A stretch of 64,000 bases of DNA from Bdellovibrionales bacterium. Lineage in GTDB: Bacteria > Bdellovibrionota > Bdellovibrionia > Bdellovibrionales > JAUICD01. Position numbers and translations under genes: made by a program. The DNA is taken from contig OZ241914.1 in NCBI GenBank assembly GCA_965203875.1, positions 1,358,039 to 1,422,038 of the forward strand. Direction: 5' to 3'. Positions 789 through 63,705 of the stretch are shown here, piece after piece (position 1 is the first letter of the stretch; each line of letters starts with the position of its first letter). Under the pieces are notes generated by a model. The model was not told where the DNA came from and did not search any database. It saw only the letters and a list, made by a program, of their open reading frames with translations.

Positions 789-871
789 AAAACGTTATGA
801 CCAAAATTACCTTTATTGTTCTATCACATCACTACCTAGGTATCAACGGATGTTTAACATTTTGTGTAACT

Positions 872-912
872 AATAAAAAGATTTAAATTGGCTTCATTTA
901 AAATGAGCCAAT
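872..912 (-). terminator. Possible intrinsic terminator downstream of dnaE
   Basis: Imperfect hairpin ttggcttcat (888-897) / atgagccaa (903-911) overlapping the dnaE stop. On the minus strand it is followed by a short T-rich run (plus-strand ataaaaag, 873-880). Confidence 0.35.
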
Positions 913-4346: not shown

Positions 4347-4347
4347 A

Positions 4348-5832
4348 TCACTCCCACTCTATAGTACTTGGTGGTTTGGATGTTACGTCGTATAAAACCC
4401 TGTTGATGCCAGGTACATTATTTACTATTAGGTTAGAAACTTTTTTCATAAATTTGGGATCAAATTCATACCAATCAGCAGTCATGCCATCATCGGATAC
4501 AACAGCTCTGATACAAATAGTATACTCATACGATCTTTTATCGCCCTGAACTCCCACTGTTTTGACAGGAATCAAAACACAAAAAGCTTGCCATATTTTA
4601 TCATATAAACCATCTTTTTTAAGTGCATCTATAAAAACTTTATCTGCTCTTTTTAAAATAGATAATTTTTCATAAGTCACTTCACCTGGTATTCTTACAG
4701 CAAGGCCGGGGCCAGGAAATGGATGCCTTTTTAATATCCAGTTAGGTATACCAAGTGTAAGACCCAGTTTACGCACTTCATCTTTAAACAAAGATTTTAG
4801 TGGCTCAAGTAAGTTGATACCTAAAACTTTAGGCAAACCTCCTACATTATGGTGGCTTTTTATAACTGCACCACCACTTTCTATTACGTCAGGATATAAT
4901 GTTCCCTGAGACAACCATTTATAGTGTCTGTCTTTTGTAAAATTCTTAAAAGTGTCAATAAAAGTTTTGCCTATTATTTTTCTCTTTTCTTCTGGATCAG
5001 TTACACCTCTAAGAGCTTGAATAAAATCTTTCTTTGCATCTATCACGTGAATATCTATTTTTAGCTTCTTATAAATGTCTACAACTTCTTCCGGCTCACC
5101 TTCTCTTAAAAGGCCATTATCTACAAATACAAAGGATACTTGGTTACCTAACTTTTTTTTAAGTACACATGCAGTGACAGTGGAATCAACGCCACCGCTC
5201 ACCGCACACAGAACTTTGTCATCTAGTTTAACGGTCTGTTCTATTTTTTTATAAATATTTTGATTGATGTTTTGCTCTGGCTTTATTTTTGCTACTTCAA
5301 ATAAAAAATACTTTAGTACCTCAGAACCATATTCGGTGTGGGTAACTTCTGGATGAAATTGTACAGCCATAACCCTGCCATTTGTCATAGCAGCAATGAC
5401 TCCATCTTGACTTTTGGCAGAAACTTCAAAACCAGAGGGAATATTAATTACACTATCTCTGTGACTCATCCAAACATTATGTTCCTTTGGTACTCCCTTA
5501 GGCGGCTGAAGGTTCCAAATAATTCTTTGCATACCAAACTCTGAACTACCGCCAGTTTCAACCGAACCACCAAACTGCTTTGCTATCAAATGCATGCCAT
5601 AGCAAACTCCAAACACATAAGTACGTTTACACAATTCTTTTATGTCTATGGTTTTATCTAATAAAACACAACCAGGGCCTCCGCTTAATATAACTACCTC
5701 CGGTTTTAGTTTATCTAAAGTATTATCGGACCAGGAGTTATGATGAATAACCTCTGAATGCACCCCAAGCTGGCTAATTCTTCTGGATATTAGCCTGGTA
5801 TACTGAGACCCAAAATCTAAGACTAGAACCAA
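4348..5832 (-). CDS. guaA: GMP synthase (glutamine-hydrolysing)
   Basis: GATase-1 N-terminal domain plus an ATP-PPase P-loop (SGGVDSTV) and the typical C-terminal end ...PPSTIEWE. TTG start preceded by GGAGG. Confidence 0.95.
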   Translation of the reverse strand: MVLVLDFGSQYTRLISRRISQLGVHSEVIHHNSWSDNTLDKLKPEVVILSGGPGCVLLDKTIDIKELCKRTYVFGVCYGMHLIAKQFGGSVETGGSSEFGMQRIIWNLQPPKGVPKEHNVWMSHRDSVINIPSGFEVSAKSQDGVIAAMTNGRVMAVQFHPEVTHTEYGSEVLKYFLFEVAKIKPEQNINQNIYKKIEQTVKLDDKVLCAVSGGVDSTVTACVLKKKLGNQVSFVFVDNGLLREGEPEEVVDIYKKLKIDIHVIDAKKDFIQALRGVTDPEEKRKIIGKTFIDTFKNFTKDRHYKWLSQGTLYPDVIESGGAVIKSHHNVGGLPKVLGINLLEPLKSLFKDEVRKLGLTLGIPNWILKRHPFPGPGLAVRIPGEVTYEKLSILKRADKVFIDALKKDGLYDKIWQAFCVLIPVKTVGVQGDKRSYEYTICIRAVVSDDGMTADWYEFDPKFMKKVSNLIVNNVPGINRVLYDVTSKPPSTIEWE

Positions 5833-13496: not shown

Positions 13497-13697
13497 TAAT
13501 TTCAGCATGCAACAAAGATAGGTGTAGAGCTGGGGTTTGGTGTATCAGTAGCTATAAACAGCAGCTGTTGGAGCTTACCTTGGACGTTGCACAACATTTT
13601 ATCAAACAATAGCTTAGCTTCACTAAGACCTTTGGTCTGAACATTACGCCAGCTATTATTTGATAAAATTGAAAACCTTTATGATTGAAGACCTTTA
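13497..13697 (-). repeat. SR-1 structured intergenic repeat (one unit plus an extra left flank), minus orientation, abutting the mutase stop codon
   Basis: The reverse complement reads TAAaggtcttcaatcat-aaaggttttcaatttt-atcaaataatagct-[core with agacc-aaa-ggtct]-agctattgtttgat-aaaatgttgtgcaacgtccaagg. The TAA is the stop of 13695..15233. Boundaries are approximate. Confidence 0.8.
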
Positions 13698-20303: not shown

Positions 20304-21893
20304 TTGAAGGTGTATAAATTTTATTTATTGATAGTATTTGTTTTAGGTTCAGCTGGGTTTTTGCATGCTGCAGATCCTAACAAGGAAAATTGCCAAACAG
20401 ACGACAGTGTAATTGTCAATGTAGCTTTGCTTGAAGCTGCAAAAGACGGAGATCTGGATTGTGTCGATAGGTTTACTGAGCCTGATTTTGATGTAAATAT
20501 GACAGGCAAAAGAGGTGAGTACGCAGATAAAACTCCTCTAATGGTTGCTGCTATGTCTGGCAAAATTGAAGTGGTGAGATTTTTGCATGAAAAAAGAGAT
20601 GACCTGGATGTAGATAAAGTTGATGGTGAGGATAAAACCGCTCTATTTTTAGCAGTTGAGGAAGGCCACAGAGAAATAGCTACTTTCCTAGCACCTCTTA
20701 GTGAAGATATAAATAAAAGGTATGGTTCAATAGAAGTTACGGTTCTTCATCATGCCATAGGTAGTGGGGATACCCAGCTTGCTTCTTATTTTCTTGGTAA
20801 TAAAGGCATAGATATCAATGCTCAAAATAAGGATGGGGATACTCCTTTGATGTGGGCTGCTGCTCGTGGTCAGGTAGAAATAGTGCACAAAATTTTAAAT
20901 AATAGAAGTGTCGATATAGGATTAGAGAATAATAGAGGTTTAACAGCTAGATATATGATTAGCACATATAATGTTGAGAGTATGAGAAACAGGCAAGCTA
21001 TATTAGATATGTTTAACCAATATGAAGGTGCGGTGGAAAAATTAGCTGTTGAAGCAGAATTTATAACAGCGGCAAAACAGGGTAACCTATCGAGGGTTCA
21101 GAGTATTTTTGCTGCAAAACAGGCAGAATTCGATATTAACAAAAAAGAATCCTTGGAAGGAAGTACGGCTTTAATATCGGCTATAGCTTGGGAGCGTCCT
21201 AACACAGCTAGATGGTTACTTGCTCAGTCAGGAATAGACGTAAATCTGGCTGATAATAGAGGAAACACTCCTTTAATGCATGCGGTGATAGTTCAGAACG
21301 AGGAATTGTTTTTTGAAATTGTACATAGAGAAGATATTAAAGTACACCACAAAAACCAAGAAGGCTTAGCTGCCATAGATATTGCAGAAAAGAAAAATAA
21401 TTCTAGAATAGTCACATTATTAAGAGACAAAATCGATAGAGATAATGCCAAGTTATTTCGTGCAGTAGAACGTGGTAACGTAGTTTCAATAGCCAATGCA
21501 TTAGACACTGGTATAGATATAAACGCCAGAAAAAATGACGGAGCAGGTAAGACCGCTCTGATTACAGCAGCAGGTTCAAGTTACAGTAAATCAAATACTA
21601 CAGTGCTTAATACCCTGCTTGCAAAATCTGGTATAGATGTAAATAAGCAATCTAATGGAGGTGTTACTCCAATCATGGCTGCGGTGTCGCAAGGTAATGA
21701 GGCAGCGGCAAATATGCTTCTTAGGGTGGAAGGAATAGATCTAAGTTTAAAAAATAACCAAGGTGAGACTGTGTTTGATTTGGCACAAAAGAGTGCAGTG
21801 CCTGGTATAGTTACCGCTTTTGAAGAGAGAAGCCAGAGTAAAGGTTTTAGCTTAAGAGGTGTTAGATCATTTTTCAAAGGGTTGTTTAAGTAA
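20304..21893 (+). CDS. Secreted ankyrin-repeat protein
   Basis: The N-terminus has a signal peptide (LLIVFVLGSAGFLHA/ADP). At least 10 ANK-type repeats follow (e.g. GDTPLMWAAARGQVEIVHKIL, GNTPLMHAVIVQNEELF, GVTPIMAAVSQGNEAAANMLL). The start may be the GTG at 20310, which is better spaced from AAGGAGG than the TTG at 20304. Confidence 0.88.
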   Translation: MKVYKFYLLIVFVLGSAGFLHAADPNKENCQTDDSVIVNVALLEAAKDGDLDCVDRFTEPDFDVNMTGKRGEYADKTPLMVAAMSGKIEVVRFLHEKRDDLDVDKVDGEDKTALFLAVEEGHREIATFLAPLSEDINKRYGSIEVTVLHHAIGSGDTQLASYFLGNKGIDINAQNKDGDTPLMWAAARGQVEIVHKILNNRSVDIGLENNRGLTARYMISTYNVESMRNRQAILDMFNQYEGAVEKLAVEAEFITAAKQGNLSRVQSIFAAKQAEFDINKKESLEGSTALISAIAWERPNTARWLLAQSGIDVNLADNRGNTPLMHAVIVQNEELFFEIVHREDIKVHHKNQEGLAAIDIAEKKNNSRIVTLLRDKIDRDNAKLFRAVERGNVVSIANALDTGIDINARKNDGAGKTALITAAGSSYSKSNTTVLNTLLAKSGIDVNKQSNGGVTPIMAAVSQGNEAAANMLLRVEGIDLSLKNNQGETVFDLAQKSAVPGIVTAFEERSQSKGFSLRGVRSFFKGLFK

Positions 21894-22394: not shown

Positions 22395-25298
22395 ATGAAA
22401 CTCAAGTTTATTAGACATATTAAAAAAGCAAGTACTTTTAAGAAAGTTGTTAAGACAAAAGTACTTTTATTTTCTGTAACATCATTTTTTATAACATTTG
22501 GTGTACTTAGTGTTTTTACTTACGCTAAAGCTCAAACTACTTCCTACACAGAGCCTAGCTTGGATGATCTAAGATTAGCTAATAAAGCTGTCTCCTCTTG
22601 CAGAGTCTTACAAGATGTTATTAGTGAAAATAGTCAGGTTGAAGACATCCCAGCTACTAAAGTTTTTGTTGAACTACAAAGAACAGAAGATGGGGATCTT
22701 CTAATAGACGATGAAGCTTGTAGAGAAAGTATTTTAGAGTTTGTTAAAAGTTTATGCACTTCTAGTTCTTCTAAGAACAATCTTTATTGTGAAAGATTAG
22801 GGATTAAGAAAAGTGAAAGTACTTTCGACTCAAATGAAGGTGCTAATACTAGTACTAATGATAATACTAATGGTAATGAAGTTGATCGTATAAGCGACTA
22901 TAAAAAAAGCGATTATAAGAAATTTGGTCAGTCGGCTATAGATAATTTAGGTATAGATCTATCAGACGATATAAGTTTTGAATCAAGTTTAGATGAAAAA
23001 GATCAACGGGAAGAAAGTAAGCTTAAGTTTTTGGCAGCTGGTACATTATTTTCTTTAAGTCCTGTAAAAAAGCTTAGAGTTGCTTCATTCGTTGGTAAGA
23101 ACTTAGCTATTAGAATAAAACCTGTTCTTAACGGAGCATTGTTAGTATTGGCTACCCTAGGTTTATCGTCTTGTAATGATGCTACAGGTCCTGAGCCAGT
23201 TAAACCTCCAACTGTAGTAGATACTCCTTGTACTAGAAGAGAAAGTGGTTATTTTCAATTATCAGGTGCTAATGTTGCTTGTATAAAGCTTCCTACCCTA
23301 ACTTATTCTTTTTTAACTAGCACAGGCGAAGAATCGGATTCTTCAAACGGTGATCCGGACACTACAATAAGAATAAAGTTTGATTCAGAAGTTGTTTTTA
23401 TAGACAACAACGAATGGCAAGAACTAACTCCAGAAAATGTCTTACAAATGCTGGAAATTAAAAAAAATAACACAGAAACTGATCTTACAACCCCAGAAGG
23501 CTCTATAAATCAGGATAACATATCCATAACCACAGAAAGCTCTAATACAGTTATAACTATAAAACCTCCAAATAGTTCTAATGGCAAAATCTATCATGCT
23601 GGGGAGTATTCTATGTTAACCAAAAACTATGCTCCAAAGACAGATGCTTCAAAAGTACAACAAAGTACTAATATAAATACTTATCTTGAAAGTATAAAAG
23701 AAGAATCCTCATTTAGTGTTACTGGCAATAATCCATGTGTTAGAGGCGAAACAGGTTACTTTTATTTTAGAGATTCTAACAACATGGCTAGATGTGAAAA
23801 CCTAATACCTAATATAAGTTATACTTTTAGTAAAAATAATGATCCTCAAGCTATCCTAAACATAAGCTTTGATTCTGATGTTGTGTACATAGACAACAAC
23901 GGTTGGTCTGAAATAGATAACAACAATATTTTAGACATGCTAGCCATCAATCCTGTTGATACTGGTACTGATGTTGATTATACGATTTATACTGGCGATT
24001 TATTAGTAGAAGATGGTCCTATTGATCAGGAACAAATCACCGTAACCAAAACAAATACTGGCATCACCATTGAAATAGATCCTCCTAACACTGGGTTGCA
24101 TTGGCGCAAGGTACATAAAATTGGGTTGTATCAAGCTGGTAACTACATGCTTTCTGCTAGTAATTATATTAGAAGATCAGATATTGATATAGTGATTCAA
24201 AACAACGCACTGGATGATTATCTAGATGCCGCAAAAGGTAGTAGTGGTACAGAGTTTTCTATTGATGCTGTCTCTAACTTATCCTGTGGATCAGAAACAT
24301 TTCAAGGTTATATGCCTACAACATCTATTGAAGACGAACACCAAGAGCCATCTTTTTGTGGAGCCTATGTGCATGAACTTCCACCTGAATTAGCTATAGC
24401 AGCACATCACCATTATCAACCCAGAAGAGCTGATCCTAATACAACCTATGTAATAGATATTGGCTTTGTAATGTCCGAAAGATATTCTACACCTGGTTGG
24501 GATGATTTTATAACGAACCATGTGCTTACTCATGTGAATGATATTTATCAAAGATCAGGAGTTAACGTAGAATTTAGAGCTAAAAGTGTTGTACCTTTTC
24601 AAGATTATAGGCACTATATACGCTGTCAGATTGATGCTCTAGATTTAAATAATAGATATGCTATATCCCGTGTTAATTTTGATTTGATTTCTATAATACG
24701 AAAGAATCATGGAGTTGATCTGATTTATACAATACAAAATTTTGAAGAAGAGACAAGAATTGCTGGGTTTGCTTCTGTTCGATTTAATGATCATTCATTG
24801 GAGGAAGCCAGAATATATGCCACTAGTGGTACGGTAGATCCTGGTTCTCATAACAAAGAAATACCTGACATGTTTGATCAACAGTACAGATTCATACATG
24901 TCCTAACACATGAACTGGGCCATAACCTAGGATTACTTCATAACAAGGAAGATTATGAAACATTCCCTGTTGAGAGCATTTTTCATCCTAAAGGGTATGG
25001 ATATATAGGGTCAGCTAATGCAATAGACGGACAAGCTTTAAGATATGGAACAGTGATGTCGATTCGTATAGACGACGTGCCTTTTTTCAGTGCTAATAAA
25101 GTGGTAACAAAAGAGGAATTATGTATAGACGAAGACAGGTACGACAATAAACTTGGCGGTGGATTTTGTACAGCCAGTTACGATAAACTAGCTGATGAAC
25201 AGCTTCGTTTAGGTGATGAGCAAGCAGACGCTTCGGAGGCTTTGCAGTACACAATAGAGGATGCCTCTAAGTATCACTGTGGTTCAGGATCATGTTAG
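22395..25298 (+). CDS. Multidomain metzincin zinc metalloprotease (reprolysin/ADAM-like catalytic motif) with an internal lipobox-like segment
   Basis: 967 aa. The order is a signal peptide (..FTYAKA/QT), a 4-Cys N-domain, then a hydrophobic stretch ending LATLGLSSC (Cys260). Two modules of about 175 aa follow. The C-terminal domain carries HELGHNLGLLH (HExxHxxGxxH) and a downstream YGTVMS (candidate Met-turn). Confidence 0.85.
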   Translation: MKLKFIRHIKKASTFKKVVKTKVLLFSVTSFFITFGVLSVFTYAKAQTTSYTEPSLDDLRLANKAVSSCRVLQDVISENSQVEDIPATKVFVELQRTEDGDLLIDDEACRESILEFVKSLCTSSSSKNNLYCERLGIKKSESTFDSNEGANTSTNDNTNGNEVDRISDYKKSDYKKFGQSAIDNLGIDLSDDISFESSLDEKDQREESKLKFLAAGTLFSLSPVKKLRVASFVGKNLAIRIKPVLNGALLVLATLGLSSCNDATGPEPVKPPTVVDTPCTRRESGYFQLSGANVACIKLPTLTYSFLTSTGEESDSSNGDPDTTIRIKFDSEVVFIDNNEWQELTPENVLQMLEIKKNNTETDLTTPEGSINQDNISITTESSNTVITIKPPNSSNGKIYHAGEYSMLTKNYAPKTDASKVQQSTNINTYLESIKEESSFSVTGNNPCVRGETGYFYFRDSNNMARCENLIPNISYTFSKNNDPQAILNISFDSDVVYIDNNGWSEIDNNNILDMLAINPVDTGTDVDYTIYTGDLLVEDGPIDQEQITVTKTNTGITIEIDPPNTGLHWRKVHKIGLYQAGNYMLSASNYIRRSDIDIVIQNNALDDYLDAAKGSSGTEFSIDAVSNLSCGSETFQGYMPTTSIEDEHQEPSFCGAYVHELPPELAIAAHHHYQPRRADPNTTYVIDIGFVMSERYSTPGWDDFITNHVLTHVNDIYQRSGVNVEFRAKSVVPFQDYRHYIRCQIDALDLNNRYAISRVNFDLISIIRKNHGVDLIYTIQNFEEETRIAGFASVRFNDHSLEEARIYATSGTVDPGSHNKEIPDMFDQQYRFIHVLTHELGHNLGLLHNKEDYETFPVESIFHPKGYGYIGSANAIDGQALRYGTVMSIRIDDVPFFSANKVVTKEELCIDEDRYDNKLGGGFCTASYDKLADEQLRLGDEQADASEALQYTIEDASKYHCGSGSC
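24909..24941 (+). other. Metzincin zinc-binding motif HELGHNLGLLH
   Basis: Codons cat gaa ctg ggc cat aac cta gga tta ctt cat, read directly from the sequence. Confidence 0.9.
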
Positions 25299-25327: not shown

Positions 25328-28300
25328 CTAATAACAGGTGCCTGTCTGTTGGTGACAACGGTTGTAGTCTGTCCACCAACAGTCACTATTTCTATCACAA
25401 CTAGCAGAAATTCCACAAGTTTTTCTTCCATATGAGATTCCACTATGGCATTGACCTTGGCCTCTACATCTTGTTCCACCTGTGCATCGACCACTTCTGC
25501 AATATGCACCACATGTATTTTTATCATCTGAGTCACAGATTACTCCTCCACTGTAGCAGGTTCCAGCTGCTGTATTATTATGAGTTCTGTATCCACAATT
25601 TTTATTCCCAACTTCACTTCGATAGTTTCTATTAACGTCTTGACAAGTCTCTGGGTCATCAGAATCAGTCCAACAAGTTTTTACACCACACACACTTGTT
25701 GAAGTACTGCCACTACCTTGATTTGTGGTATTTGGATGAGTACTTGGACAAGATACTTCACTTGATGTTTTAGCTACACGTGTACCGCATTGATCAGGAT
25801 TACACTTATAACAATCATTTGGGATGCAGGTAGGACCACTTCCATTCCAGCATGTTTTTACACCACATACTAGCGGTGTTTTTTTAGTACTCTTACAAGT
25901 TTGTTTTGAAGTATATGGATGAGTACTTGGACAAGATACTTCACTTGCTGTTTTAGCTACACGTGTACCGCATTGATCAGGATTACACTTATAACAATCA
26001 TTTGGGATGCAGGTAGGACCGCTTCCATTCCAGCATGTTTTTACACCACATACTCTGGTTGAACGACTATTACAAGTTTGTTGTGAAGTATTTGGATGAG
26101 TACTTGGACAAGATACTTCACGTGCTGTTTTAGCTACACAACTGTTACCACTACATTTTTGACAAGGATTGCAATCACACCGGGGAGGATCTACACAACT
26201 ACCACTTCCATTACAAACTTTGCCACCAGTACATTTGCTAGTTGGTGATCCACATCCATCAGAAGGACATTTCTTGCATGCATTTCTATCTTCAGTAGTT
26301 AAAGTACAAGGTGTCCCATTATTACAGCTTCCATTCACACAGAGGTTACATGTACCAGTACAATCTGAGGGTCCGCTACACTGAGGAGGATCTACACACC
26401 TACCACTTCCATTACAAATTTTGTTAAGAGCAATGCATCTATTAGTTGGTGAACCACATCCGTTAGAAGGACATACCATACAATTATTAGTGTCTGCTGT
26501 GCAGTAATCGGTACCTCCACGATAGCAAGTTTCTGGGTCAGGGTCTGGGTCAGATAATGTGCTGTCATCGTTACCAGTGCTATCATCTACGCCGCTATCA
26601 TCACCAGTATTTCCACCGCCTCCAGTGGATTTACACTTGTAACAATATGTATCGCATACACCGATAGCTTCAGGAGTTTTACCATCATCAGTACAGGCTG
26701 ATGAACTACTTTCTTTATGAGTAGGATGATTTGAGCAGTTTACAGCTTGAGCTATGCACTTACCTCCAACACACTCTTGGCAGGAGTTACAATCTGAAGG
26801 ACCACTACAGGAATGTTGACTTACACATCGATCTGCCAGACTTGTATCTGCTGAACAAACTTTTCCAAGTGCTGCACAAGCAGCATTATCGCAGGCACAA
26901 CCATTATTTACGCAAATATTACCAGGATTACAGCAAATAGCATTATTACGACAACTAGCATGATTAGCTGGACATTCACAACGGCCAGTAGCACTATTAC
27001 ACCTCTGAATACCAGTGCATGTTACCCCAGCACATGGATCCGTTGTAGTAGTCGTAGAGAAAATAAGTGCATCTTCTTGAGGCGATGGAGAGTAGTTACC
27101 ATACTCGTCCACTAACCTAAGCTCTATACTATACTCAATACTAGAATCAGGTGCAGGCAACTCAGTAAATCTTAAATGTAACTCCCTATCTTTACTACGA
27201 TCACCACCTTCAGGATCACTAGGATCACTCGCATATAGCTGGGCAGTCACAGGATGTGTATCATCACCAATAGTAAAGGAACTACCAGATAAATCATCAC
27301 ATAAAAACCAATCTCCAACTGGATGATCTATACCACTAATCTTTTTGTTCAAACGACATAAAAATACTCCCTTACTAAAACTGGAATTTAAACAATATCC
27401 TGCATCATTACCATCTGGACACCTATAACCCCTATCCCATACACGACCTTCTAGCTTAAACCTACATGTCGTAGAATTATCAGAATTTGTAGTACATTGA
27501 AGGGTAGTGGTCGTTGTTGAAGTTGATGAACTGTCTGAAGAATCAGCCTCAGAATTAGACACAGAAGATAGAGATATTGTAGATGGATTATGCTTATTAT
27601 TAGCTTTATTAGCCAGATTACTAACTAAGTTGTTACTAACTAACTTGTTGTTATTAGCTTTGCTACTAACTAACTTGTTGTTATTTTTGTTACTAGCTAA
27701 ATTAGCTTGAAAGCTATTATCAGGTGGTTGAGTCGTAGTAACTGAAGTAGTCTTTACTATTGTCTTATTGCGTGCTGTTACATACCTCTGAGAATAAGAA
27801 AATACCTTCTCAGCTCTGCATCTGATAGGATCATAACTAGATACTGCCTTCCTCTCCTCAACCTCCACAAATAACTTAAATCCAAGATCATGACGAATAT
27901 TAGCCTCAGGCAAACCTGATAAACTAGAAGCAAGCTTATAACCTAACTTACTCTTATCTGAATTCTCAGGTTTATCATAAACAGAACGAGGACGAACAAA
28001 AATAGGATGTATAGCCTTACTCTTATGCCTGTTACAACTATCTGTCTTCTCATTCTTGCTTATATCCCAAGGCCTTATACCAATACGAACATCATACTTA
28101 GACTTAGCTATGTAATTACTTACAGGAGTATAACTACTCACAGGCTCAACTGGACCAAAGGATAAGGACGATATATCAGATAAACGCTCACTTAACAAAA
28201 ATAACGACTCTCCGGTCAACCTATCCCACTTATATCCATCTGAAGATGAACCATTGTTGTCTGCTAGCCCTTGATGAGCTGTCCGTTTATCTTCATCCTT

Positions 28301-28510
28301 AAGCTTACGATATTTATTAGGATTCTCTTCAACCCACTTGTCTAAATCACCTAACTTTATCAAAGGAGCAGAAGACTCATGAGACTTAAACTCCATCTTC
28401 ACTAGATCAAAAGTCAAAGCTGAACTGTTACTAATTTGAGCATCTGATGGACATATAGAAATAGGATTAGTAGAAGATGTCTTTAAATACTTATTATACA
28501 AGTCCTCCAA
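25328..28510 (-). CDS. Giant Cys-rich / EGF-like repeat surface protein body, probably the 3' part of a phase-variable fusion with the pilin-like ORF upstream
   Basis: The ORF-track start is a TTG with no signal peptide. The same frame is actually open from 28684, so it runs through the G13 tract. The C-terminal 560 aa are dominated by Cys-rich modules (DPCAGVTCTGIQRCNSATGRCEC; CPSxGCGSPTxxC..CNGSGxCVDPPxC; three copies of VAKTxxEVSCPSTHP..CGVKTCWNGSGPTCIPNDCYKCNPDQCGTR). Confidence 0.8.
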   Translation of the reverse strand: MEDLYNKYLKTSSTNPISICPSDAQISNSSALTFDLVKMEFKSHESSAPLIKLGDLDKWVEENPNKYRKLKDEDKRTAHQGLADNNGSSSDGYKWDRLTGESLFLLSERLSDISSLSFGPVEPVSSYTPVSNYIAKSKYDVRIGIRPWDISKNEKTDSCNRHKSKAIHPIFVRPRSVYDKPENSDKSKLGYKLASSLSGLPEANIRHDLGFKLFVEVEERKAVSSYDPIRCRAEKVFSYSQRYVTARNKTIVKTTSVTTTQPPDNSFQANLASNKNNNKLVSSKANNNKLVSNNLVSNLANKANNKHNPSTISLSSVSNSEADSSDSSSTSTTTTTLQCTTNSDNSTTCRFKLEGRVWDRGYRCPDGNDAGYCLNSSFSKGVFLCRLNKKISGIDHPVGDWFLCDDLSGSSFTIGDDTHPVTAQLYASDPSDPEGGDRSKDRELHLRFTELPAPDSSIEYSIELRLVDEYGNYSPSPQEDALIFSTTTTTDPCAGVTCTGIQRCNSATGRCECPANHASCRNNAICCNPGNICVNNGCACDNAACAALGKVCSADTSLADRCVSQHSCSGPSDCNSCQECVGGKCIAQAVNCSNHPTHKESSSSACTDDGKTPEAIGVCDTYCYKCKSTGGGGNTGDDSGVDDSTGNDDSTLSDPDPDPETCYRGGTDYCTADTNNCMVCPSNGCGSPTNRCIALNKICNGSGRCVDPPQCSGPSDCTGTCNLCVNGSCNNGTPCTLTTEDRNACKKCPSDGCGSPTSKCTGGKVCNGSGSCVDPPRCDCNPCQKCSGNSCVAKTAREVSCPSTHPNTSQQTCNSRSTRVCGVKTCWNGSGPTCIPNDCYKCNPDQCGTRVAKTASEVSCPSTHPYTSKQTCKSTKKTPLVCGVKTCWNGSGPTCIPNDCYKCNPDQCGTRVAKTSSEVSCPSTHPNTTNQGSGSTSTSVCGVKTCWTDSDDPETCQDVNRNYRSEVGNKNCGYRTHNNTAAGTCYSGGVICDSDDKNTCGAYCRSGRCTGGTRCRGQGQCHSGISYGRKTCGISASCDRNSDCWWTDYNRCHQQTGTCY
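25690..26150 (-). repeat. In-gene tandem repeat, period 183/177 bp, about 3 copies
   Basis: tacttggacaagatacttcac recurs at 25741, 25924 and 26101. Copies 1 and 2 are nearly identical over more than 120 bp (ttttagctacacgtgtaccgcattgatcaggattacacttataacaatcatttgggatgcaggtaggacc...). Boundaries are approximate. Confidence 0.9.
27596..27705 (-). repeat. Short in-gene tandem / low-complexity repeat encoding N/K/L/V/S-rich peptide
   Basis: ctaactaacttgttgttatt occurs twice among related ttagc/ttact units. The encoded peptide is NNNKLVSSKANNNKLVSNNLVSNLANKANNK. Confidence 0.7.
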
Positions 28511-28598
28511 AACTCCAACATCTGAACCATCATATAACCTATCTAAATGTAAAGTAACTCCACTAGATGAAGCACTTAATGGAGAATCTACAGAAGTA

Positions 28599-28889
28599 TT
28601 ATGACCAATCTTGCTTAAATTTTGGTCGCCCCCCCCCCCCCAAATTTTGGGTAGTAGAGGTAGTAGAAACAGTAGATATAGTAGCTACTTCTTTCTTAGG
28701 AGAAACCTTACTGCCATTCTTAGAAAAATGAGCCAATACATTACCAGCTACAGATGAACACATATAAGTATCATGCTTCCTCTGAGTTAAAGTCATCATA
28801 TTAGCCGACATAAACGTAACCACAAAACCTGTAGCTGATACCAACGCCAATCCTATCAATGTCTCCAACATCGTAAATCCCCCAGTCTT
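28599..28889 (-). CDS. Prepilin-type N-terminal (cleavage/methylation-like) domain ORF, truncated by frame at a G13 tract
   Basis: It encodes ..KTGGFTMLETLIGLALVSATGFVV.., a close match to the type IV pilin/pseudopilin G/FTLxE plus hydrophobic-helix signature. The only canonical start nearby is the ATG at 28871 (the M of FTMLE), preceded by GGGGGA. No start exists for a normal short leader. The ORF stops 8 codons after the G tract. Confidence 0.6.
   Translation of the reverse strand, partial: KTGGFTMLETLIGLALVSATGFVVTFMSANMMTLTQRKHDTYMCSSVAGNVLAHFSKNGSKVSPKKEVATISTVSTTSTTQNLGGGGRPKFKQDWS
28629..28641 (-). repeat. Homopolymeric tract: C13 on the plus strand, G13 on the coding strand
   Basis: Counted directly: ...ggtcg cc cccccccccc c aaatt... 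It sits exactly at the junction of the two overlapping reading frames. Confidence 0.95.
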
Positions 28890-29222
28890 GCGACTGGACG
28901 CATTTGCTGGCTTACAGCCAGCCGCTTGAACAAAAGCTAACAGTAAACTACGAAAACCTATTGTTCGATAACAACTTTCAGTTGGAGGCTTTTGCAACCT
29001 AACGGCTGCAGAACTTCGGAGTAACCAAGTTTTTCGTGATTCACATAAGCTTTTGAACCATCCATGGCGACTGGACGCATTTGCTGGCCAACCTACGGTT
29101 GGATCAGTTTGCTGGCCTTCGGCCAGCCTCTTAAACGAAAAATTAACTTGCGACTGCGGAGCTTTATAAAAACCAACCTTCGGCCCAATCAATCTGCCGG
29201 CTTTCAGCCGGCCCTTTAAAAG
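28890..29222. repeat. SR-3 cluster of REP-like short GC-rich hairpins
   Basis: gcgactggacgcatttgctgg occurs twice (28890, 29066). Hairpins present are gctggct-tac-agccagc, ccaacc-tac-ggttgg, gctggcc-ttc-ggccagc and gccggc-tttc-agccggc. The same family is found at 63706-63906. Confidence 0.85.
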
Positions 29223-29485
29223 AAAAGTATTTTTAAAACGAATAAATAAAGATCTTAAAAAAAACAAAATAAAAACCTAAAACTTAAAACCAAACTTACC
29301 AAACTCTAAATTCTACGACAAAAAACCCTTTTCACAAAGAAAAACAAAACTAAGTCCAGAAAAATACCCCTCACACACATATAAATTATCACATTGAGAC
29401 AGTACCTTCTGATACAGTACCTTTCATTTACAAAAAGGTAACCACGACATATTAAGCAGACTAAAATATGCAAGCTACAACAATA

Positions 29486-29565
29486 AAAGATGGGTGTATG
29501 GTTTAGAGAGGCTTTCAAGCTGCTCGAAAGAGCAGCGTACCTCGACAAACCATACACCCATCTTT
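29486..29565. repeat. SR-2 element (opposite orientation): a 42-bp conserved core flanked by perfect 19-bp inverted repeats
   Basis: aaagatgggtgtatggttt (29486-29504) and aaaccatacacccatcttt (29547-29565) are exact reverse complements. The reverse complement of the core is gtcgaggtacgctgctc-tttc-gagcagcttgaaagcctctct. This nearly matches the 22191-22232 core except for the loop. Confidence 0.9.
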
Positions 29566-35284: not shown

Positions 35285-37426
35285 ATGAGTGATGAAAAGA
35301 AGTTTTTAGAAAAACACGGACGCAATCTTGTAGCAGAAGCTTCAAAAGGTAAGCTTGATCCGGTTATAGGAAGAAATGATGAGATAAGAAGAGTTATTAG
35401 AGTCTTATCCAGAAAAACCAAGAATAACCCAGTCCTAATAGGAGAGCCTGGTGTTGGAAAAACAGCCATTGCAGAAGGATTAGCTCAAAGAATTGTAGCA
35501 GAGGACGTACCAGACGGGTTAAAAGATAAAAAGGTATTTTCTTTAGATGTAAGCTCACTTATTGCTGGTGCAAAATTCATGGGTGAATTTGAAGAGCGTC
35601 TAAAAGGTGTATTAAATGAAGTCAAAAATGCAGATGGTCAAATTATTTTATTCATAGATGAGTTACATACAATAGTAGGAGCTGGAAAGACAAACGGTGC
35701 CATGGACGCCGGACAAATACTTAAACCAATGCTTGCCAGAGGAGAACTTCGCTGCATAGGTGCTACAACACTAGATGAGTATAGACAATACATCGAAAAA
35801 GATGCTGCACTTGAAAGAAGATTTCAGCCTGTCAAAATTGAACCACCCAACGTAGATGATGCAATTTCGATATTAAGAGGACTAAAAGAAAGATTTGAAG
35901 TATATCATGGTGTTAAGATTCATGATTCTGCAATTGTAGCTGCATCTAAGTTATCTGATAGATACATAACTGGAAGATTTTTACCCGATAAAGCCATTGA
36001 TCTCATAGATGAGGCGTGTGCAATGATCAGGACAGAATTAGATTCAAGCCCTACCGAATTGGACATAAAAAATAGAAAACTAATGCAGTTAGAAATAGAA
36101 AAAAGAGCGTTAAAAAACGAAAGTGATCAGGCAAGTAAAGCAAGGTTAAAAGATGTCATAGAAGAGTTAAAATCAACAAAAGCACAAGCTGTCGAACTTG
36201 AAAACAAATGGAAAAAAGAAATTAAAGAATTAAAAGCAATACGAGATCTTAGAAAAAAAATAGAGAGTGTAAAAAACCAAATTGCTCTATACGAAAGAGA
36301 GTATAACTTAGCAAAAGTAGCCGAACTAAAATTTGGTCTATTGCCGAACTTAGTAAAAAATTTGGAGAATGCAGAAAAAGAAACAAAGTTAGAATTAATT
36401 TTTGAATCTGTGACAGAAAACCATATAGCAAATGTTGTGTCCAAATGGACAGGTATACCTGTTACCAACTTATTAAAAAAAGAGCGTATAAAATTATTAG
36501 AGTTAGCTAAAAAACTACACCAAAAAATAGTAGGCCAAGATCAAGCTGTAAAACTTGTATCAGACAGTATAATTAGAGCTAGATCAGGCATAAAAGATCC
36601 AAATAGACCAATAGGGTCATTTATTTTCTTAGGACCAACTGGTGTTGGAAAAACGGAACTTGCCAGAGTGTTAGCAGCAGAGCTTGAAAAAAAAGTTGTT
36701 AGAATCGACATGAGTGAACTTATGGACAAACACTCAGTAAGCAAACTAATAGGTGCACCTCCAGGTTATGTTGGCTATGATGAAGGAGGCAAACTAACAG
36801 AAGCTGTGAGAAGAAATCCATATTCAATAATACTGTTTGATGAAATGGAAAAAGCTCACAAAGATGTACTAAATTTATTACTTCAAATATTGGATTATGG
36901 AAATGTTACAGACTCTCAAGGCAGAGAAGTAGACTTTAGAAATACCGTGATAATAATGACATCCAATATAGGTTCACATAGTCTACTTAAATGTAAAAAC
37001 ACAATAACAGACAGTATAAAAGCCGAGGTTTTTGAACAGCTTAATAGAGAGTTTAGGCCTGAATTTCTAAATAGAATAGATGAAATAGTTTTGTTTACTC
37101 CTTTGAATGAACAAGAGTTGGAACAAATATTAGATATGCTTGTAGATCAAATTCAGAAAAGACTTGAAGATAAGGATATACATATAGAGCTATCCACAAG
37201 TGCTAAAAAACACTTTTTACAAAAAGGATACGATCCCGTATATGGAGCAAGACCATTGAAACGAGTTTTACAAAGAGAGCTTGAAACCTTTGTAGCTAAT
37301 CAAATGATATCTGGACAAATCACAAAAGGTAATTATGTAGTTTCATACAACAACGGAAAACTTGAAAGCTCAATCTATCATGGAGATTCATCCAACCCTT
37401 CGGTTGAGAAGCTTATTGGATGTTAA
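35285..37426 (+). CDS. clpB: ClpB-type disaggregase lacking the N-terminal domain
   Basis: 713 aa. It starts at the NBD1 linker ([41 protein letters not shown]). It has the coiled-coil M-domain and NBD2 ([24 protein letters not shown]). No N-domain coding capacity lies between it and nfu (48 bp). Confidence 0.9.
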
Positions 37427-38038: not shown

Positions 38039-39307
38039 GTGATATTAATTATATTTTTGATTTTTATACAAACAGTAAAAGCTGACTTAGAAATCATGTA
38101 TGTATCTGGTGTATCAAAGTACATACCAGGTGAAAATAAAATTTTTGCAGGTACTGCTGGAGAAGAATGTAGAGGTAATACAAGTACTTGTGATAGTTGT
38201 ACAGGCTGGGGAGATAAGCTAGCTCCAGAAGCATGTAATGCAAAACGCATTAATGATCAAGGAGGGAGTTTATCATTTGAATTTCGTGGTCCTACTTATG
38301 GCACACCTGTAATTACAGATAATGACAAAACTACTAATTTAGCTATTGGACCTGATTCTGAAAATGGCACCTACTACATTGCTATACCGTGGGATGTACT
38401 TTGCGAGCATATAATTTCAAATAACAACTGTGACTCTAGAGATGGAGATGGAACAATCTATGTTGGTATAGACAAAAATGAAGATGGAATACTAGGTTCT
38501 GAGGAAGAAAGCATAGCGATGAATATAGTGATCTTATCTGGAATGGAAGGTGCTGTAGACATGATTAGACAAGAAAATGGTATAGGTGAATTTAAAGTCT
38601 ATCCAGGTGACAAAAAAGTTTATTTATTAGATGGTATGTTGCCCTATGGAAATTTCCCTTACTATAATGGCACAACTACCTTCGAGGAAATACGATTATA
38701 CTATGAAGAGACGAATCGTGGATGCGGTGACGTTACACAAATTAGCAACACATCTAGATATGTTTCAACCAAAATTTTAGATCTCACCAGTGAAGAAGAG
38801 TTTCAAGTGGAACATCAGTATTTTAAAAACTTTGAAAATAAAAAAACATTTTTATTTAAATTAGCGTTAGTAGATGAAGCAGGTAATATAGGACTATTCA
38901 CGCCTGATGCCGCTTGCAATAGTGATCATATAGCTACACCAGACAACGTGTACGGCATGCTTGGTTCAAATAAATGTTTTATAGTTGAAACAGCTATGGG
39001 CAGCTCTATGTATCCACACGTCAGCACACTTAGACAATTCAGAGACAAAAAACTTATGGCAAACACATTGGGTAGAAGTATAGTAGATGCATACTATAGC
39101 TACTCACCATACATGACAAAATTTATAAAAAAAAACAAAGCTCTAAAGATATTTAGCAGAATATTGTTGTTACCATTAATAACCTTTGCGTATCTTGGTA
39201 TTTACTTAGGTTTTATTGGTACGTTTGTTATATATGCTCTGTTACTCGTTAGTTGCATGGCTCTTCGGCCAGTTCAACATCAGGGTTATAATCGTGTGTG
39301 TAGTTAG
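38039..39307 (+). CDS. Secreted protein with a C-terminal CF(I/V)xTAxGS...LRQFRD...YYxxSP module plus a TM helix
   Basis: Signal peptide (IFLIFIQTVKA/DLE). The C-terminus reads NKCFIVETAMGSSMYPHVSTLRQFRDKKLMANTLGRSIVDAYYSYSPYMTKFI, followed by a hydrophobic helix. Confidence 0.65.
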   Translation: MILIIFLIFIQTVKADLEIMYVSGVSKYIPGENKIFAGTAGEECRGNTSTCDSCTGWGDKLAPEACNAKRINDQGGSLSFEFRGPTYGTPVITDNDKTTNLAIGPDSENGTYYIAIPWDVLCEHIISNNNCDSRDGDGTIYVGIDKNEDGILGSEEESIAMNIVILSGMEGAVDMIRQENGIGEFKVYPGDKKVYLLDGMLPYGNFPYYNGTTTFEEIRLYYEETNRGCGDVTQISNTSRYVSTKILDLTSEEEFQVEHQYFKNFENKKTFLFKLALVDEAGNIGLFTPDAACNSDHIATPDNVYGMLGSNKCFIVETAMGSSMYPHVSTLRQFRDKKLMANTLGRSIVDAYYSYSPYMTKFIKKNKALKIFSRILLLPLITFAYLGIYLGFIGTFVIYALLLVSCMALRPVQHQGYNRVCS

Positions 39308-40304
39308 TACACCAGTATCCTACGCTAACAACTTGGCCTGTATACAATGGCGGGCTAAAAAACAGCTTACTACCCTGTAAGTATGGATGGCCCTCATCGC
39401 TTACATAAGTGTCAGGCAAAGTTAAAACAAAGCACTTATCTTCATTCCTGTTTTCATAAGGTTCGCATGATAACTGGATTGATTGAATAGCAATATCCTC
39501 TGCAATTCTATCTAAAATATTTCTGTAGTTACTAGAGTAGATACATGCTACTGATCCATTTGTTTGTTCTGATGCTTCCATGTACAACTTTCCTACGCTT
39601 GGATTAGCAGTTCCATCTGCAAATAAACTCCTACGACAATTTGGTTTTCCTGTGTCTACTATAGAATGTACCGTGAAGTGTTTTTGTTTTCCAAATCTTC
39701 TGTGTACAGCTGTAACTAGGTCATCTGCATCTTTGTATCCACTGTTGTAATCTATACATGTGAAAGTTTGCTCGTAGTCAGCAGCTTTACAACCACTGTC
39801 TTCATCACTGACAAATAGAACTACAAGCTCTGCATCAGATCTAAAAAATCCCTGATTTCCTTCTATGGCTGCTATAGCTCTTTCTATGCCTTTTTCATCT
39901 CCGTAGAGGTATCTCTTTTTTATGTCATTTGAGTTTGTTTCTTTATCGGATATGTCTTGAATGATTTGGTAAAAATCTCCAGTTCTAATTCTGGTGTTAT
40001 TATCAGGGTTACTGTGCGGGTTTTCATGTAGGTATGTTGTTATTATACCTACTTTGTAGTCAAAGTTAGATAACCTGTTTAAAAAACCTCTAAAACCATT
40101 TTTTAATTTTTGCTGTTCATCTAGCATAGATCTTGAGTTGTCTAAAACAACAAGTATATCGACAATATTTGGTGGTATTGTTTGTTCATAATTTTGTGGT
40201 TTATATTGAATAGAGCTAGTAAATTCCACATCTGAACATGCAACAAAGCCAACAAGTAGCCCTACTACAAAAAGGCCTAGAAAAAGTGTGTTGAGTTTAA
40301 TCAT
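39249..40304 (-). CDS. von Willebrand factor A (VWA) domain lipoprotein
   Basis: Lipobox LLVGFVAC and the MIDAS motif DILVVLDNSRSM (DxSxS). Its 3' end overlaps the convergent gene by 59 bp. Confidence 0.75.
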   Translation of the reverse strand: MIKLNTLFLGLFVVGLLVGFVACSDVEFTSSIQYKPQNYEQTIPPNIVDILVVLDNSRSMLDEQQKLKNGFRGFLNRLSNFDYKVGIITTYLHENPHSNPDNNTRIRTGDFYQIIQDISDKETNSNDIKKRYLYGDEKGIERAIAAIEGNQGFFRSDAELVVLFVSDEDSGCKAADYEQTFTCIDYNSGYKDADDLVTAVHRRFGKQKHFTVHSIVDTGKPNCRRSLFADGTANPSVGKLYMEASEQTNGSVACIYSSNYRNILDRIAEDIAIQSIQLSCEPYENRNEDKCFVLTLPDTYVSDEGHPYLQGSKLFFSPPLYTGQVVSVGYWCTNYTHDYNPDVELAEEPCN

Positions 40305-41482: not shown

Positions 41483-42484
41483 GTGTCAAACATAAATGTA
41501 GATCTTGATAAATATAAATTGGATTGCATAATAGGTCAAAGCCTTCCTATTATGAAAGTCATGCAACTCATAGACAGGGTTGCATCTTCATGTGCAAATG
41601 TACTAATCACAGGCGAAAGTGGAACAGGAAAGGAGTTGGTAGCTCAAGCACTTCATTACAATTCCGAACGATCCAAGGAACCATTGATAGCAATAAACTG
41701 CACCGCAATACCATCGGAGCTATTAGAAAGTGAATTGTTTGGACATGTAAAAGGTGCATTTACTGGTGCTACATCTGATAGAGTGGGTAGATTTGAAAAA
41801 GCAAAGAGGGGCACAATATTTCTAGACGAAATAGGGGACATGAGTCCTAGCCTACAGGCCAAACTGCTGAGAGTTTTGCAGGATAGAAAATTTGAACCAG
41901 TTGGTGATAGTAGGCCAAGACAATTTAATGCAAGGGTAATAACGGCTACAAATATAGATCTAGAGCGTGCGATAAAAGAAAATAGATTTAGAAGGGATTT
42001 ATATTATAGGCTAAATGTCATACCAATAAAAATGCCCTCTCTAAGAGAACGACCATCAGATATACCCATATTAACACATTATTTTTTAAAAATATTTACA
42101 AGACAAAATCACAAACAAATAAATGGAATTAGCAAAAGTGCTATGGATCAACTGTGTGCGTATCCTTGGCCTGGAAATATAAGGGAGTTAGAAAACTTAA
42201 TAGAACGATTGGTCATCATAAAAGATCATGGATTAATTGAATTAGCTGATATACCTGCAAAATACATAACCAACCAAAAAGTAAATCCAGATGATAAATT
42301 GCTAACTTATGTTCCTAACTCAGGGATAGATCTTAATGAAGCAATTGCTAGGTATGAAAATATGCTTTTGGTGGATGCTCTAAATAAGGTAAATTGGAAT
42401 AAGAACAGAGCAGCCAGCTTACTAAAATTGAACAGAACCACCTTGGTAGAAAAGATCAAAAGAAAAAAGTTGAAGCAAGTTTAA
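41483..42484 (+). CDS. Sigma-54-dependent transcriptional activator (AAA+ and HTH only, no sensory/receiver domain)
   Basis: GESGTGKELVAQALH (Walker A), the GAFTGA loop (KGAFTGA), an RFRRDLYYRL arginine-finger region and a C-terminal Fis-type HTH (NKNRAASLLKLNRTTL). The AAA+ core starts about 15 aa from the N-terminus. Confidence 0.9.
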   Translation: MSNINVDLDKYKLDCIIGQSLPIMKVMQLIDRVASSCANVLITGESGTGKELVAQALHYNSERSKEPLIAINCTAIPSELLESELFGHVKGAFTGATSDRVGRFEKAKRGTIFLDEIGDMSPSLQAKLLRVLQDRKFEPVGDSRPRQFNARVITATNIDLERAIKENRFRRDLYYRLNVIPIKMPSLRERPSDIPILTHYFLKIFTRQNHKQINGISKSAMDQLCAYPWPGNIRELENLIERLVIIKDHGLIELADIPAKYITNQKVNPDDKLLTYVPNSGIDLNEAIARYENMLLVDALNKVNWNKNRAASLLKLNRTTLVEKIKRKKLKQV

Positions 42485-42722
42485 AGGTTTTCAATTTTTA
42501 ATAAGTGTACATAGCGAAACGGCCCGACTGTAGGTCAAAGTGTAGCTATGTATACTTATTAAAAATGTTTACCAGCTCTCAAGGTATACTCCAAAATATT
42601 TGCTAAAGGTCTTCAATTTTATCTAATATTTGATTAGCAAAGCGGTAAGCCAGAAAGCTTAAAGCGTAGCTAAGAAAATATTTGATAAAAAGTTGTGCAA
42701 CGTTCAAGGTATATTCCAAAAG
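42482..42722 (+). repeat. SR-1 structured intergenic repeat, two tandem units, starting on the activator's TAA stop
   Basis: Unit 1 (42482-42596): TAAaggttttcaattttt / aataagtgtacatagc / core / gctatgtatacttatt / aaaaatgtttaccagctctcaaggtatactcc. Unit 2 (42604-42722): aaaggtcttcaatttt / atctaatatttgattagc / core with taagc-cagaaa-gctta / gctaagaaaatatttgat / aaaaagttgtgcaacgttcaaggtatattcc. Confidence 0.9.
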
Positions 42723-63061: not shown

Positions 63062-63118
63062 ATCTTTAGACAAAAATCCAGAGCAATTCCAACACTAAAA
63101 TCCTGACTTTAAAGATAT

Positions 63119-63649: not shown

Positions 63650-63705
63650 ACAAAACCTCCTTTTATTGTATAATCACAATATGTGTACGATTTTTTATAT
63701 GTCAA

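Follow-up and report, generated by a model that had tools for sequence, protein, structure and literature searches.

The stretch of DNA analysed here (the window) comprises 64,000 nucleotides from a Bdellovibrionales bacterium (GenBank assembly GCA_965203875.1, contig OZ241914.1, positions 1,358,039 to 1,422,038), and its minus strand carries, at a galU/spoIID-like locus, a large cysteine-rich gene with a tract of 13 G residues in its 5' part (28629..28641, minus strand; C13 on the plus strand). An open reading frame (ORF) of 222 codons, here called the stub, begins at TTG 29267 and runs through the tract (29267..28599, minus strand). It reads ...SSRKTGGFTMLETLIGLALVSATGFVVTF...QNLGGGGRPKFKQDWS* and contains a long basic leader, a class-III-like G|FTMLE signal with a hydrophobic helix, a tail, the glycine run and nine out-of-frame codons before the stop codon at 28601-28599; in the vicinity of the tract its sequence is ...ANASSRKTGGFTMLETLIGLALVSATGFVVTF...TTQNL, TTG + 12 G, RPKFKQDWS and stop. 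A second minus-strand frame follows a stop at 28687-28685; from 28684 it runs on across the tract without a stop as far as 25328, the open part that the tract separates from the prepilin-like N-terminus being 1,099 codons long. The ORF listing of the window holds no ATG, GTG or TTG for it before TTG 28510, nor was an export signal of its own found upstream of that codon. A prediction made earlier from these letters alone (the original prediction) had described a C13 run parting a prepilin-like N-terminus from a long, start-less Cys-rich frame, offset by +1 and open from 28684. All of this was found again upon re-reading the sequence, as was the stop position, only that nine and not eight sense codons lie between the tract and the stop. 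We consider it likely that the window allele is a frameshifted (OFF) copy of a slippage-switched contingency multigene family.

G/C runs of 1, 2, 3, 4, 5 and 6 nt occur 14571, 3529, 452, 74, 5 and 1 times in the 64-kb window (36% GC), and a run of 13 occurs once. No other G/C run in the window exceeds 6, and G13 stands alone, far above the expectation from chance and composition; across the related loci (about 120 kb), runs of at least 7 G/C are limited to the family tract in each copy and one C9 in the leader of a distant relative (L007). The tract encodes a glycine linker (GGGG) that joins the N-terminal helix segment to the following part of the protein, termed the body. Deletion of one G in silico yields a single ORF of 1,180 aa counted from ATG 28871 with the junction ...QNLGGGGDQNLSKIGHNTS..., in agreement with the length of about 1180 aa that had been forecast for a 12-G tract, and the junction peptides encoded by such a fused frame are LGGGGDQNLSK or KKSGGGGDQNLSK. 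Frame arithmetic places the body in frame at tract lengths of 9, 12 and 15, and the 13-G state is out of frame (+1, OFF), as the original prediction held.

The in-silico fused protein was used to search protein clusters, which returned 11 clusters, and cluster look-ups added P0013-P0019 and P0140-P0156. The 11 clusters were located on a 1,600,901-bp contig (NCBI and ENA), a 1,239,795-bp contig (ENA ERZ25067941) or smaller ENA contigs. The 1.6-Mb contig encodes proteins 100% identical to the ClpB and to the large ORF of the window; the window therefore comes from this genome. The window stub is identical to the database protein P0140 encoded on the same contig. That genome has at least seven family bodies (P0001, P0003, P0006, P0007, P0010, P0011, and P0016), and the single-copy view gives way to a family of at least seven members with mosaic C-termini. 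The paralogs have a near-identical promoter-like block, leader and N-terminal half of the body, and their C-terminal Cys-rich half is mosaic. An exhaustive phmmer search with the N-terminal half of the body against 1.84 billion cluster representatives matched the family itself and P0012 only. Neither the family N-terminus nor DnaE had a match in a representative genome collection, from which the species is hence absent, and scans of JGI metagenomes gave no match either, although one member, P0142, is listed as JGI/IMG.

Eight loci were compared as DNA, namely the window and seven family loci (L001-L006 and L008), in addition to the distant L007. The tract lies at the same codon position in 8/8 loci, ahead of the same CGACCAAAATTTAAGC, with lengths of G9, 11, 11, 12, 13, 14, 14 and 14. 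The individual alleles are G13 in the window, G11 in L001 (the ERZ25067941 counterpart of the window's galU/spoIID-like locus, with 98.7% identity across 14 kb), G9 in L002 and G12 in L008 (one locus, sharing flanking genes from ada to lnt and dsbD), G14 in L003, G14 in L004 and G11 in L005 (again one locus), and G14 in L006. The distance from F(+1) of the N-terminal motif to the body equals 0 modulo 3 for the G9 and G12 alleles only. Tract length differs among paralogs and, in strains sharing 97-99% identity, at orthologous loci as well (13 vs 11; 14 vs 11; 9 vs 12 vs an inferred 13). Directly 5' of the tract, the window has a segment of 36 nt (28642..28677, minus strand; …STVSTTSTTQNL), in place of which other copies including L001 have the 9-nt AAAAAAATC (KKS, A7TC), a difference of 27 nt that keeps the frame. 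Orthologous loci, too, can differ in which of the two forms they carry (window vs L001; L004 vs L005; L002 and L008 were also compared), which argues for gene conversion across the tract region.

Three of the in-frame copies are full-length single ORFs, P0004 (L002, G9, 1,198 aa), P0018 (L008, G12, 1,193 aa) and P0152 (G12, 1,286 aa), and contain the predicted junction ...GGGGDQNLSKIGHNTS... or KKSGGG(G)DQNLSK. The proposal that the two frames form one gene is thereby borne out by natural G9 and G12 alleles, the G12 allele of L008/P0018 having the exact junction GGGGDQNLSK that had been predicted. P0007 (918 aa) is uninterrupted like P0004, with a long leader, G|FT(M/L)LE, a GGG junction and the body, and P0156 (932 aa) is a further full-length family protein. 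The G11, G13 and G14 alleles terminate 4-9 sense codons past the tract, and stubs exist for both wrong frames. Those of one frame end in ...GGGGRPKFKQDWS (P0140, P0017, and P0146), and those of the other in ...GGG(G)ATKI (P0141, P0143-145, P0150, P0151, P0154, and P0155). Out-of-frame stubs are also encoded by more distant relatives, i.e., P0142 = P0153 (71% identical, obtained independently from JGI/IMG and Logan) and P0149 (45% identical), and P0147 is the OFF form of the P0007 type. Altogether about 5/19 tract-bearing copies are in frame, which is near a random third, and about 14/19, from at least five datasets including JGI/IMG and Logan, are out of frame. The idea that each genome keeps a single ON copy was rejected, as ERZ25067941 has three in-frame copies (P0018, P0152, and P0156). 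P0012 (1,398 aa, 42% identity) is without a G tract at the site (…KFSQGGVEP…) and forms one continuous ORF from KVG|FTLIETLIGLALVS into the body, from which we conclude that the fused architecture is ancestral. At the P0012 locus (L007), a C9 run at 3978-3986 lies in the leader-coding region (…LTVPPPTLKF…) and may be an alternative switch position, and the gene upstream of P0012 is another Cys-rich paralog with eight near-identical tandem repeats.

The tract lengths come from assemblies, and for the other copies in the window's own genome they are known from protein ends only. Several points weigh against reading them as switching. Long G runs are the commonest long-read error, the contig names (contig_1; ctg…_7.32x_l) resemble long-read assembler output, L002, L005 and L006 come from contigs labelled ~5-7x, and every out-of-frame length (11, 13, and 14) sits within 1 nt of an in-frame length. 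Moreover, L004 (ERZ25067941 contig_1) and L005 (ERZ25070167) differ over positions 1-4400 by 1 mismatch and 12 single-base indels in 4.4 kb. The L004 indels include clustered 1-nt insertions, break a DsbA-like gene and another gene and are probably local assembly errors; the same contig_1 is the source of L001, L003 and L004, and its homopolymer lengths need caution. The true tract in the window, and in most OFF copies, might accordingly be of an in-frame length such as 12 or 15, which would leave an intact giant pilin-like gene where the tract merely supplies glycine linker codons and has no regulatory role. We regard such a miscall as unlikely, since the 14 kb compared between the window and L001 contain 130 substitutions but only 6 indel events, none of them a 1-nt slip outside the tract region, with flanking housekeeping ORFs of equal length, since both wrong frames are represented among the many out-of-frame copies, and since the 3 nt that separate G9 from G12 at one locus do not look like a miscall. 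Whatever the errors in single lengths, G tracts of at least 9 have proved hypermutable wherever tested (general knowledge; PMC5953494). Some points are independent of the exact lengths: every copy examined, and relatives as little as 45% identical, keep a G tract of at least 9 at a single codon position, all three frames are represented, one locus shows the 3-nt difference, and genic tracts of G(9-20) are established switches (PMC5953494). For the window itself, we lean towards G13 being the true modal state. The comparison of tract length and frame in related genomes, which the original prediction had proposed as a check, turned out in its favour, with the tract in all eight loci compared as DNA, lengths of 9-14 and both in-frame and out-of-frame alleles.

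The body falls into two halves. The conserved N-terminal one (27041..28627, minus strand), of about 530 residues from the D of DQNLSK to just before DPCAGV, comprises an N-terminal domain followed by an N/S/T-rich low-complexity linker that has a beta-rich segment. Over this half most paralogs share 90-100% identity, and P0012 has 42%. The continuous ORF of P0012 also conserves the 39 codons that lead from the tract to TTG 28510, which must therefore be coding. The C-terminal half (25328..27040, minus strand; stop 25330-25328) is Cys-rich, with about 14% Cys, and the 1,057 residues called as P0001 contain 91 Cys. A mosaic map was drawn from exact 12-mer sharing between the window protein and the other copies: residues 561-640 (26582-26821) show exact sharing with P0007 only, residues 641-800 (26102-26581) have almost no exact 12-mer match in other copies, residues 801-900 (25802-26101) are common to P0002 and P0003, and residues 921-1057 (25331-25741) are common to the ortholog P0013 only. 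The ortholog pair of the window and L001 is 98-100% identical apart from a cassette of ~900 nt at 36-54% identity. Searches of Pfam, NCBIfam, PDB sequences and PADLOC returned no family match for the body, and Rfam gave nothing relevant.

A different explanation would be that the frameshifted copies are dead duplicates, i.e., a decaying pseudogene family in a shrinking genome. The small contigs (1.24-1.6 Mb) and the richness in ankyrin genes hint at host association, where pseudogenes are common, the majority of copies are out of frame, and the genes beside P0012 in L007 look fragmented. The bodies themselves tell otherwise: after the tract, 1,018-1,110 codons are open in the 7 loci measured with no internal stop, and the ratio of non-synonymous to synonymous substitution rates (dN/dS) over the first 500 body codons is 0.49-0.58. 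The paralogs are 100% identical across more than 1 kb of the 5' half, which indicates ongoing gene conversion, and sister strains have in-frame alleles at these loci. Apart from the frameshift, which invariably falls in the tract, nothing interrupts the genes; the out-of-frame copies are not decaying, and we consider the pseudogene explanation highly improbable.

The locus has three features of a contingency locus, i.e., an outsized repeat within an ORF, a repeat number that toggles between full length and an early stop, and polymorphism between strains with conserved flanks. In the mechanism that we propose, each copy would be transcribed from one promoter, and translation would reach the body when the G run equals 3n only. 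Slipped-strand mispairing during replication would alter the tract length, and, because the tract sits between the only export/anchor signal and the body, only lengths of 9, 12 and 15 would give the full protein. All other lengths would give a stub of ~90-220 residues, consisting of leader and helix, with no exported body; the window G13 would then be OFF, and the deletion of a single G would turn it ON. The copies at about seven loci would switch independently within populations, and recombination between them would reshuffle the Cys-rich cassettes. The predicted protein comprises a long basic leader, a class-III signal-like G|FT(M/L)(L/I)E helix, a glycine linker, the conserved half of ~530 residues and the mosaic Cys-rich half, and the outcome may be a combinatorial and reversible population repertoire of ligand-binding proteins at the surface or on a pilus, where they would presumably act as adhesins. 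It is also conceivable that the DNA stays out of frame and that polymerase stuttering or +/-1 ribosomal frameshifting yields a constant, low full-length fraction from every copy. Comparable expression is reported from insect endosymbionts with poly(A) tracts. Transcription is generally known to slip on long homopolymers, and the ORFs are maintained despite most copies being out of frame; yet tract-length polymorphism is seen directly in the DNA, and no frameshift-stimulating structure was seen, no search having been aimed at one. Slippage at the level of RNA or the ribosome would complement the DNA switch and not exclude it, and we hold it to be quite improbable as the explanation of these loci.

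The N-terminal motif (28812..28880, minus strand) has Gly(-1) at 28880-28878 followed by F(+1)TMLE(+5)TLIGLALVSATGFVVTF, with mostly hydrophobic residues from +1 to +22 and a Glu at +5. Class III signal peptides are defined by a leader with a terminal Gly or Ala, followed by ~21 mainly hydrophobic residues with Glu at +5 (PMC8179133), and the window sequence ...KTGG|FTMLETLIGLALVSATGFVVTF agrees with that definition. Seven diverged N-termini of the family, 40-90% identical elsewhere, have G(-1), F(+1), T(+2), E(+5) and TLIGL without exception. Weak matches to profile hidden Markov models (HMMs) are all to pilins or pseudopilins: N_methyl in 5/7 members (E<=0.01), GspI, ComGF, PilV, IV_pilin_GFxxxE, ComGE, ComGD and ComGC. 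The prepilin-like signal of the original prediction is thus upheld at the level of the motif and falls short in HMM support, the check it had suggested with N_methyl having come out negative for the window copy. This copy scores 12.8 bits as a whole protein and 17.7-18.2 bits as a fragment against N_methyl (PF07963; cutoff 21.2), and 13.6 bits against TIGR02532 (cutoff 16.3). The N_methyl cutoff is reached barely and by fragments of relatives only (P0007, 22.3 bits; P0012, 21.6 bits).

The leader region (28881..29276, minus strand) is open for 133 codons upstream of F(+1) and contains no ATG or GTG, only the TTG codons 29267, 29192 and 28997, of which 29192 is conserved in 8/8 DNA-checked loci and 28997 is nearest to the motif. 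The frame upstream of the motif is open for 64-133 codons in 8/8 loci, for 86 in P0012 and, at the protein level, for about 100 in P0007, and the alternative frames of the region contain 5-11 stops. The predicted leader has at least 36-105 residues, an example of the encoded peptide being LAEGQQTDPTVGWPANASSR. Length differences among paralogs are in-frame indels of 3, 90, 177 nt and larger, apart from a 1-nt insertion in L004 that is probably an assembly error. No constraint on the amino acid sequence is apparent, since replacement codon columns (27) far outnumber synonymous ones (6). The leader further contains a 22-nt direct repeat (28890-28911 and 29067-29088) and, within the open frame at 28882-29212, is filled with GC-rich hairpins of 6-7 bp that resemble repetitive extragenic palindromic elements (GCTGGCTGTAAGCCAGC, CCAACCGNAGGTTGG, and GCCGGCTGAAAGCCGGC), the stems of which show two compensatory changes between paralogs (C-G to T-A). 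The same hairpin family occurs in plainly non-coding DNA at 63700-63900, upstream of an hsp20-like gene (63173-63649).

The ATG taken as start by the original prediction (28869..28871, minus strand) has a Shine-Dalgarno-like GGGGGA 7 nt upstream. Its codon falls at +3 of the putative mature protein (G|FTMLE), a position from which no prepilin could start; the Met is Leu in P0007 and P0012 (FTLLE and FTLIE), and the frame upstream is open. We therefore regard this start codon as unlikely: the true start is probably an upstream TTG, and the long leader is probably translated. A leader that is merely a non-coding 5' untranslated region with the start at ATG 28871 is less likely, given the open frame in three independent lineages, the in-frame length differences and the change of Met to Leu. 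That less likely view retains in its favour the occurrence of the same hairpins in non-coding DNA upstream of the hsp20-like gene and the lack of amino acid constraint in the leader. An internal start at TTG 28510/28501 was rejected, since P0012 conserves the 39 codons ahead of it and a protein started there would lack an export signal. The GGAGG found 2 nt 5' of this TTG site is probably the reason why database models of out-of-frame copies start with MYNKYLK or MEDLYN, shortly 3' of the tract region, as most of the cluster proteins do. A promoter-like site (29310..29337, minus strand; TTGTGA-16-TAGAAT) was recognised by consensus match only, inside a block of ~130 nt ahead of TTG 29267 in which the aligned paralogs hardly differ. 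Farther upstream of this conserved block, at 29486-29565, there is a 26-nt inverted repeat (AAAGATGGGTGTATGGTTTAGAGAGG … CCTCGACAAACCATACACCCATCTTT), and related sequence is found ahead of the L001, L002 and L006 copies. Other short intergenic repeats are common to the family loci and to window positions 13576-13681, 42481-42690 and 62891-63066.

The N-terminus is presumably processed as a prepilin, and the protein is a tentative member of the pilin family, since it shows one of the defining features and lacks another. A further set of results tells against the pilin part of our reading. In addition to the sub-threshold HMM scores, the N-terminal profile found no significant pilin among PDB sequences (best pilin match Geopilin, E 0.75), AlphaFold2 on P0004 with an 11-sequence family alignment gave an unusable model (mean predicted local distance difference test score, pLDDT, 29) in which a helix is called from +1 to ~+52, and the ~190 kb that were read of the 1.2-1.6 Mb genomes showed neither a prepilin peptidase gene nor genes of a pilus or type II secretion system. 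A short hydrophilic leader with a canonical start was not found either, there being no ATG, GTG or TTG within 39 codons 5' of G(-1). The protein might instead be an uncleaved signal-anchor with a basic cytoplasmic tail, a transmembrane helix and an outside body, G|FTxLE being a relic or the result of convergence. The predicted leader is far above the length of known prepilin leaders, and its frame is open in the three lineages with no canonical start near the motif, which fits such an anchor. On the other hand, the invariance of G(-1), F(+1), T(+2) and E(+5) among members just 40-45% identical in this segment would be difficult to account for unless a prepilin peptidase recognises them, the families matched are pilins and pseudopilins only, and the unconstrained leader sequence fits a disposable leader. 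We consider the signal-anchor possible, if rather doubtful; it concerns the identity of the protein only and is independent of the switch.

The switching logic is already known in kind (a homopolymer in the 5' coding region; opa, pilC), and the protein family, an orphan, is new, as is its host lineage. In Neisseria, genic G(9-20) tracts switch pilC, pglA and lgtA, and Opa is listed among the genic phase-variable families (PMC5953494). The opa genes are likewise dispersed paralogs (~11-12 opa; at least 7 copies here) with a slippage-prone repeat in the 5' coding region between or within export signal and mature protein, and there too frame alone sets ON or OFF, the copies are independent and variable regions recombine (the opa side being general knowledge). 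However, the opa repeat is the pentamer CTCTT and not a homopolymer, and Opa proteins are small outer-membrane beta-barrels with Sec signals, unrelated in sequence to the Cys-rich proteins of ~1,100-1,300 residues with a prepilin-like signal described here. The pilC1/pilC2 genes encode a large adhesin (~110 kDa) associated with type IV pili and have, within their 5' coding region, a G tract of 9-20 that switches them by frameshift (PMC5953494; Jonsson et al. 1991, cited there), whereas PilC/PilY1 has a Sec-type signal, is not a pilin, and exists in two copies without a cassette mosaic. No homology of the family to PilC was detected, the searches of Pfam, NCBIfam and PDB having given sub-threshold pilin-motif matches at most.

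As judged from its predicted layout, the protein resembles a very large modular pilin. Modular type IV pilins (PilB and PilC of Streptococcus sanguinis, CofB, and GspK) share a class III signal and an N-terminal helix to which a linker attaches a bulky non-pilin module, supposedly a ligand-binding part presented at the filament tip (PMC8179133). They differ in having short leaders (7 residues in PilB) and in passing IPR012902/N_methyl, the largest surveyed has 860 residues, and none is reported in that survey as phase-variable or as a multigene mosaic family (PMC8179133). In contrast, the family described here has a long leader, a borderline HMM score and ~1,100-1,300 residues, and a pilin beta-sheet module is not demonstrable.

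In Chlamydia pneumoniae, a host-associated bacterium with a small genome, intragenic poly-G frameshifts set ON or OFF among the paralogous surface-protein genes of the pmp family. The poly-G contingency genes of Campylobacter and Helicobacter likewise switch surface-protein genes by intragenic frameshift. The Pmps, however, are autotransporters, the Campylobacter genes are mostly single-copy and concern glycosylation or the surface, and the family, the signal type and the mosaic Cys-rich layout differ. The variant-specific surface proteins (VSPs) of Giardia form a large repertoire of Cys-rich (CXXC-type) variable extracellular domains on a conserved anchor. They serve as an analogy only, being eukaryotic, under post-transcriptional and epigenetic control and anchored at the C-terminus, and no Pfam VSP match was found in the family protein. 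With little confidence, we speculate that the tract might toggle each of the ~7 loci between two products of one promoter, a helix-only "stub" pilin, similar in size to truncated Geobacter-type pilins, and an adhesin-loaded pilin of ~1,100 residues, so that the type IV filaments of a host- or prey-associated bacterium with a reduced genome would bear combinatorial Cys-rich tips or decorations in a VSP-like antigenic variation, with the co-duplicated reprolysin-like proteases as partners for processing or release.

The proteins exceed every modular pilin of the 2021 survey in size (PMC8179133), and the family together with its paired proteases takes up an estimated 3-4% of the 1.2-1.6 Mb genome of a probably host-associated bacterium. 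If the switch is real, the family would mark the organism's main variable interface with host or prey, and the tract lengths at ~7 loci would offer a ready read-level assay of population dynamics in metagenomes. As for annotation, the many pairs of "hypothetical" genes of 150-220 aa and ~1,000 aa in these assemblies are single genes.

Convergent to the pilin-like gene, the window encodes a secreted-looking reprolysin-like (metzincin) metalloprotease of 967 aa (22395..25298, plus strand; HELGHNLGLLH) with M12B-type characteristics, namely the HExxHxxGxxH motif and a Reprolysin_3 score of 28.1 bits vs a cutoff of 22.4. Every family copy examined adjoins a paralogous gene for a reprolysin-like metalloprotease of 930-1,120 aa, usually convergent and once in tandem (L002 9681-13007, L003 8105-10912, L004 7980-10814, L005 8202-11036, L006 7017-10376, and L008 10762-13578). 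The pilin-like gene and the protease appear to duplicate as a unit, which suggests a functional partnership, e.g., in processing or release, and the protease neighbours fit an exported, disulfide-rich protein. Genes for DsbD, DsbA-like or thioredoxin/redoxin proteins lie within a few kb at L002 15384-15597, L004 2967-3434, L005 2652-3410, L006 10862-11422 and L008 16578-18218; they may fit exported disulfide-rich products or be there by coincidence. A 529-aa ankyrin-repeat protein is encoded at 20304-21893 (plus strand) of the window, and more ankyrin genes flank L004 and L005, which, together with contigs of 1.2-1.6 Mb, suggests a host-associated lifestyle. Elsewhere in the window, one protein of the pair encoded at 38039-39307 (plus strand) and 39249-40304 (minus strand) has a CFI-box-CTERM domain (78.8 bits, above the cutoff), and the other gives a weak match to the NCBIfam MIDAS-adhesin model MIDASAdhsBdello, the name of which suggests Bdellovibrio. 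The ClpB encoded at 35285-37426 is without an N-domain, its nearest relatives are at 75% identity, and the next are of mixed phyla at 62-66%.

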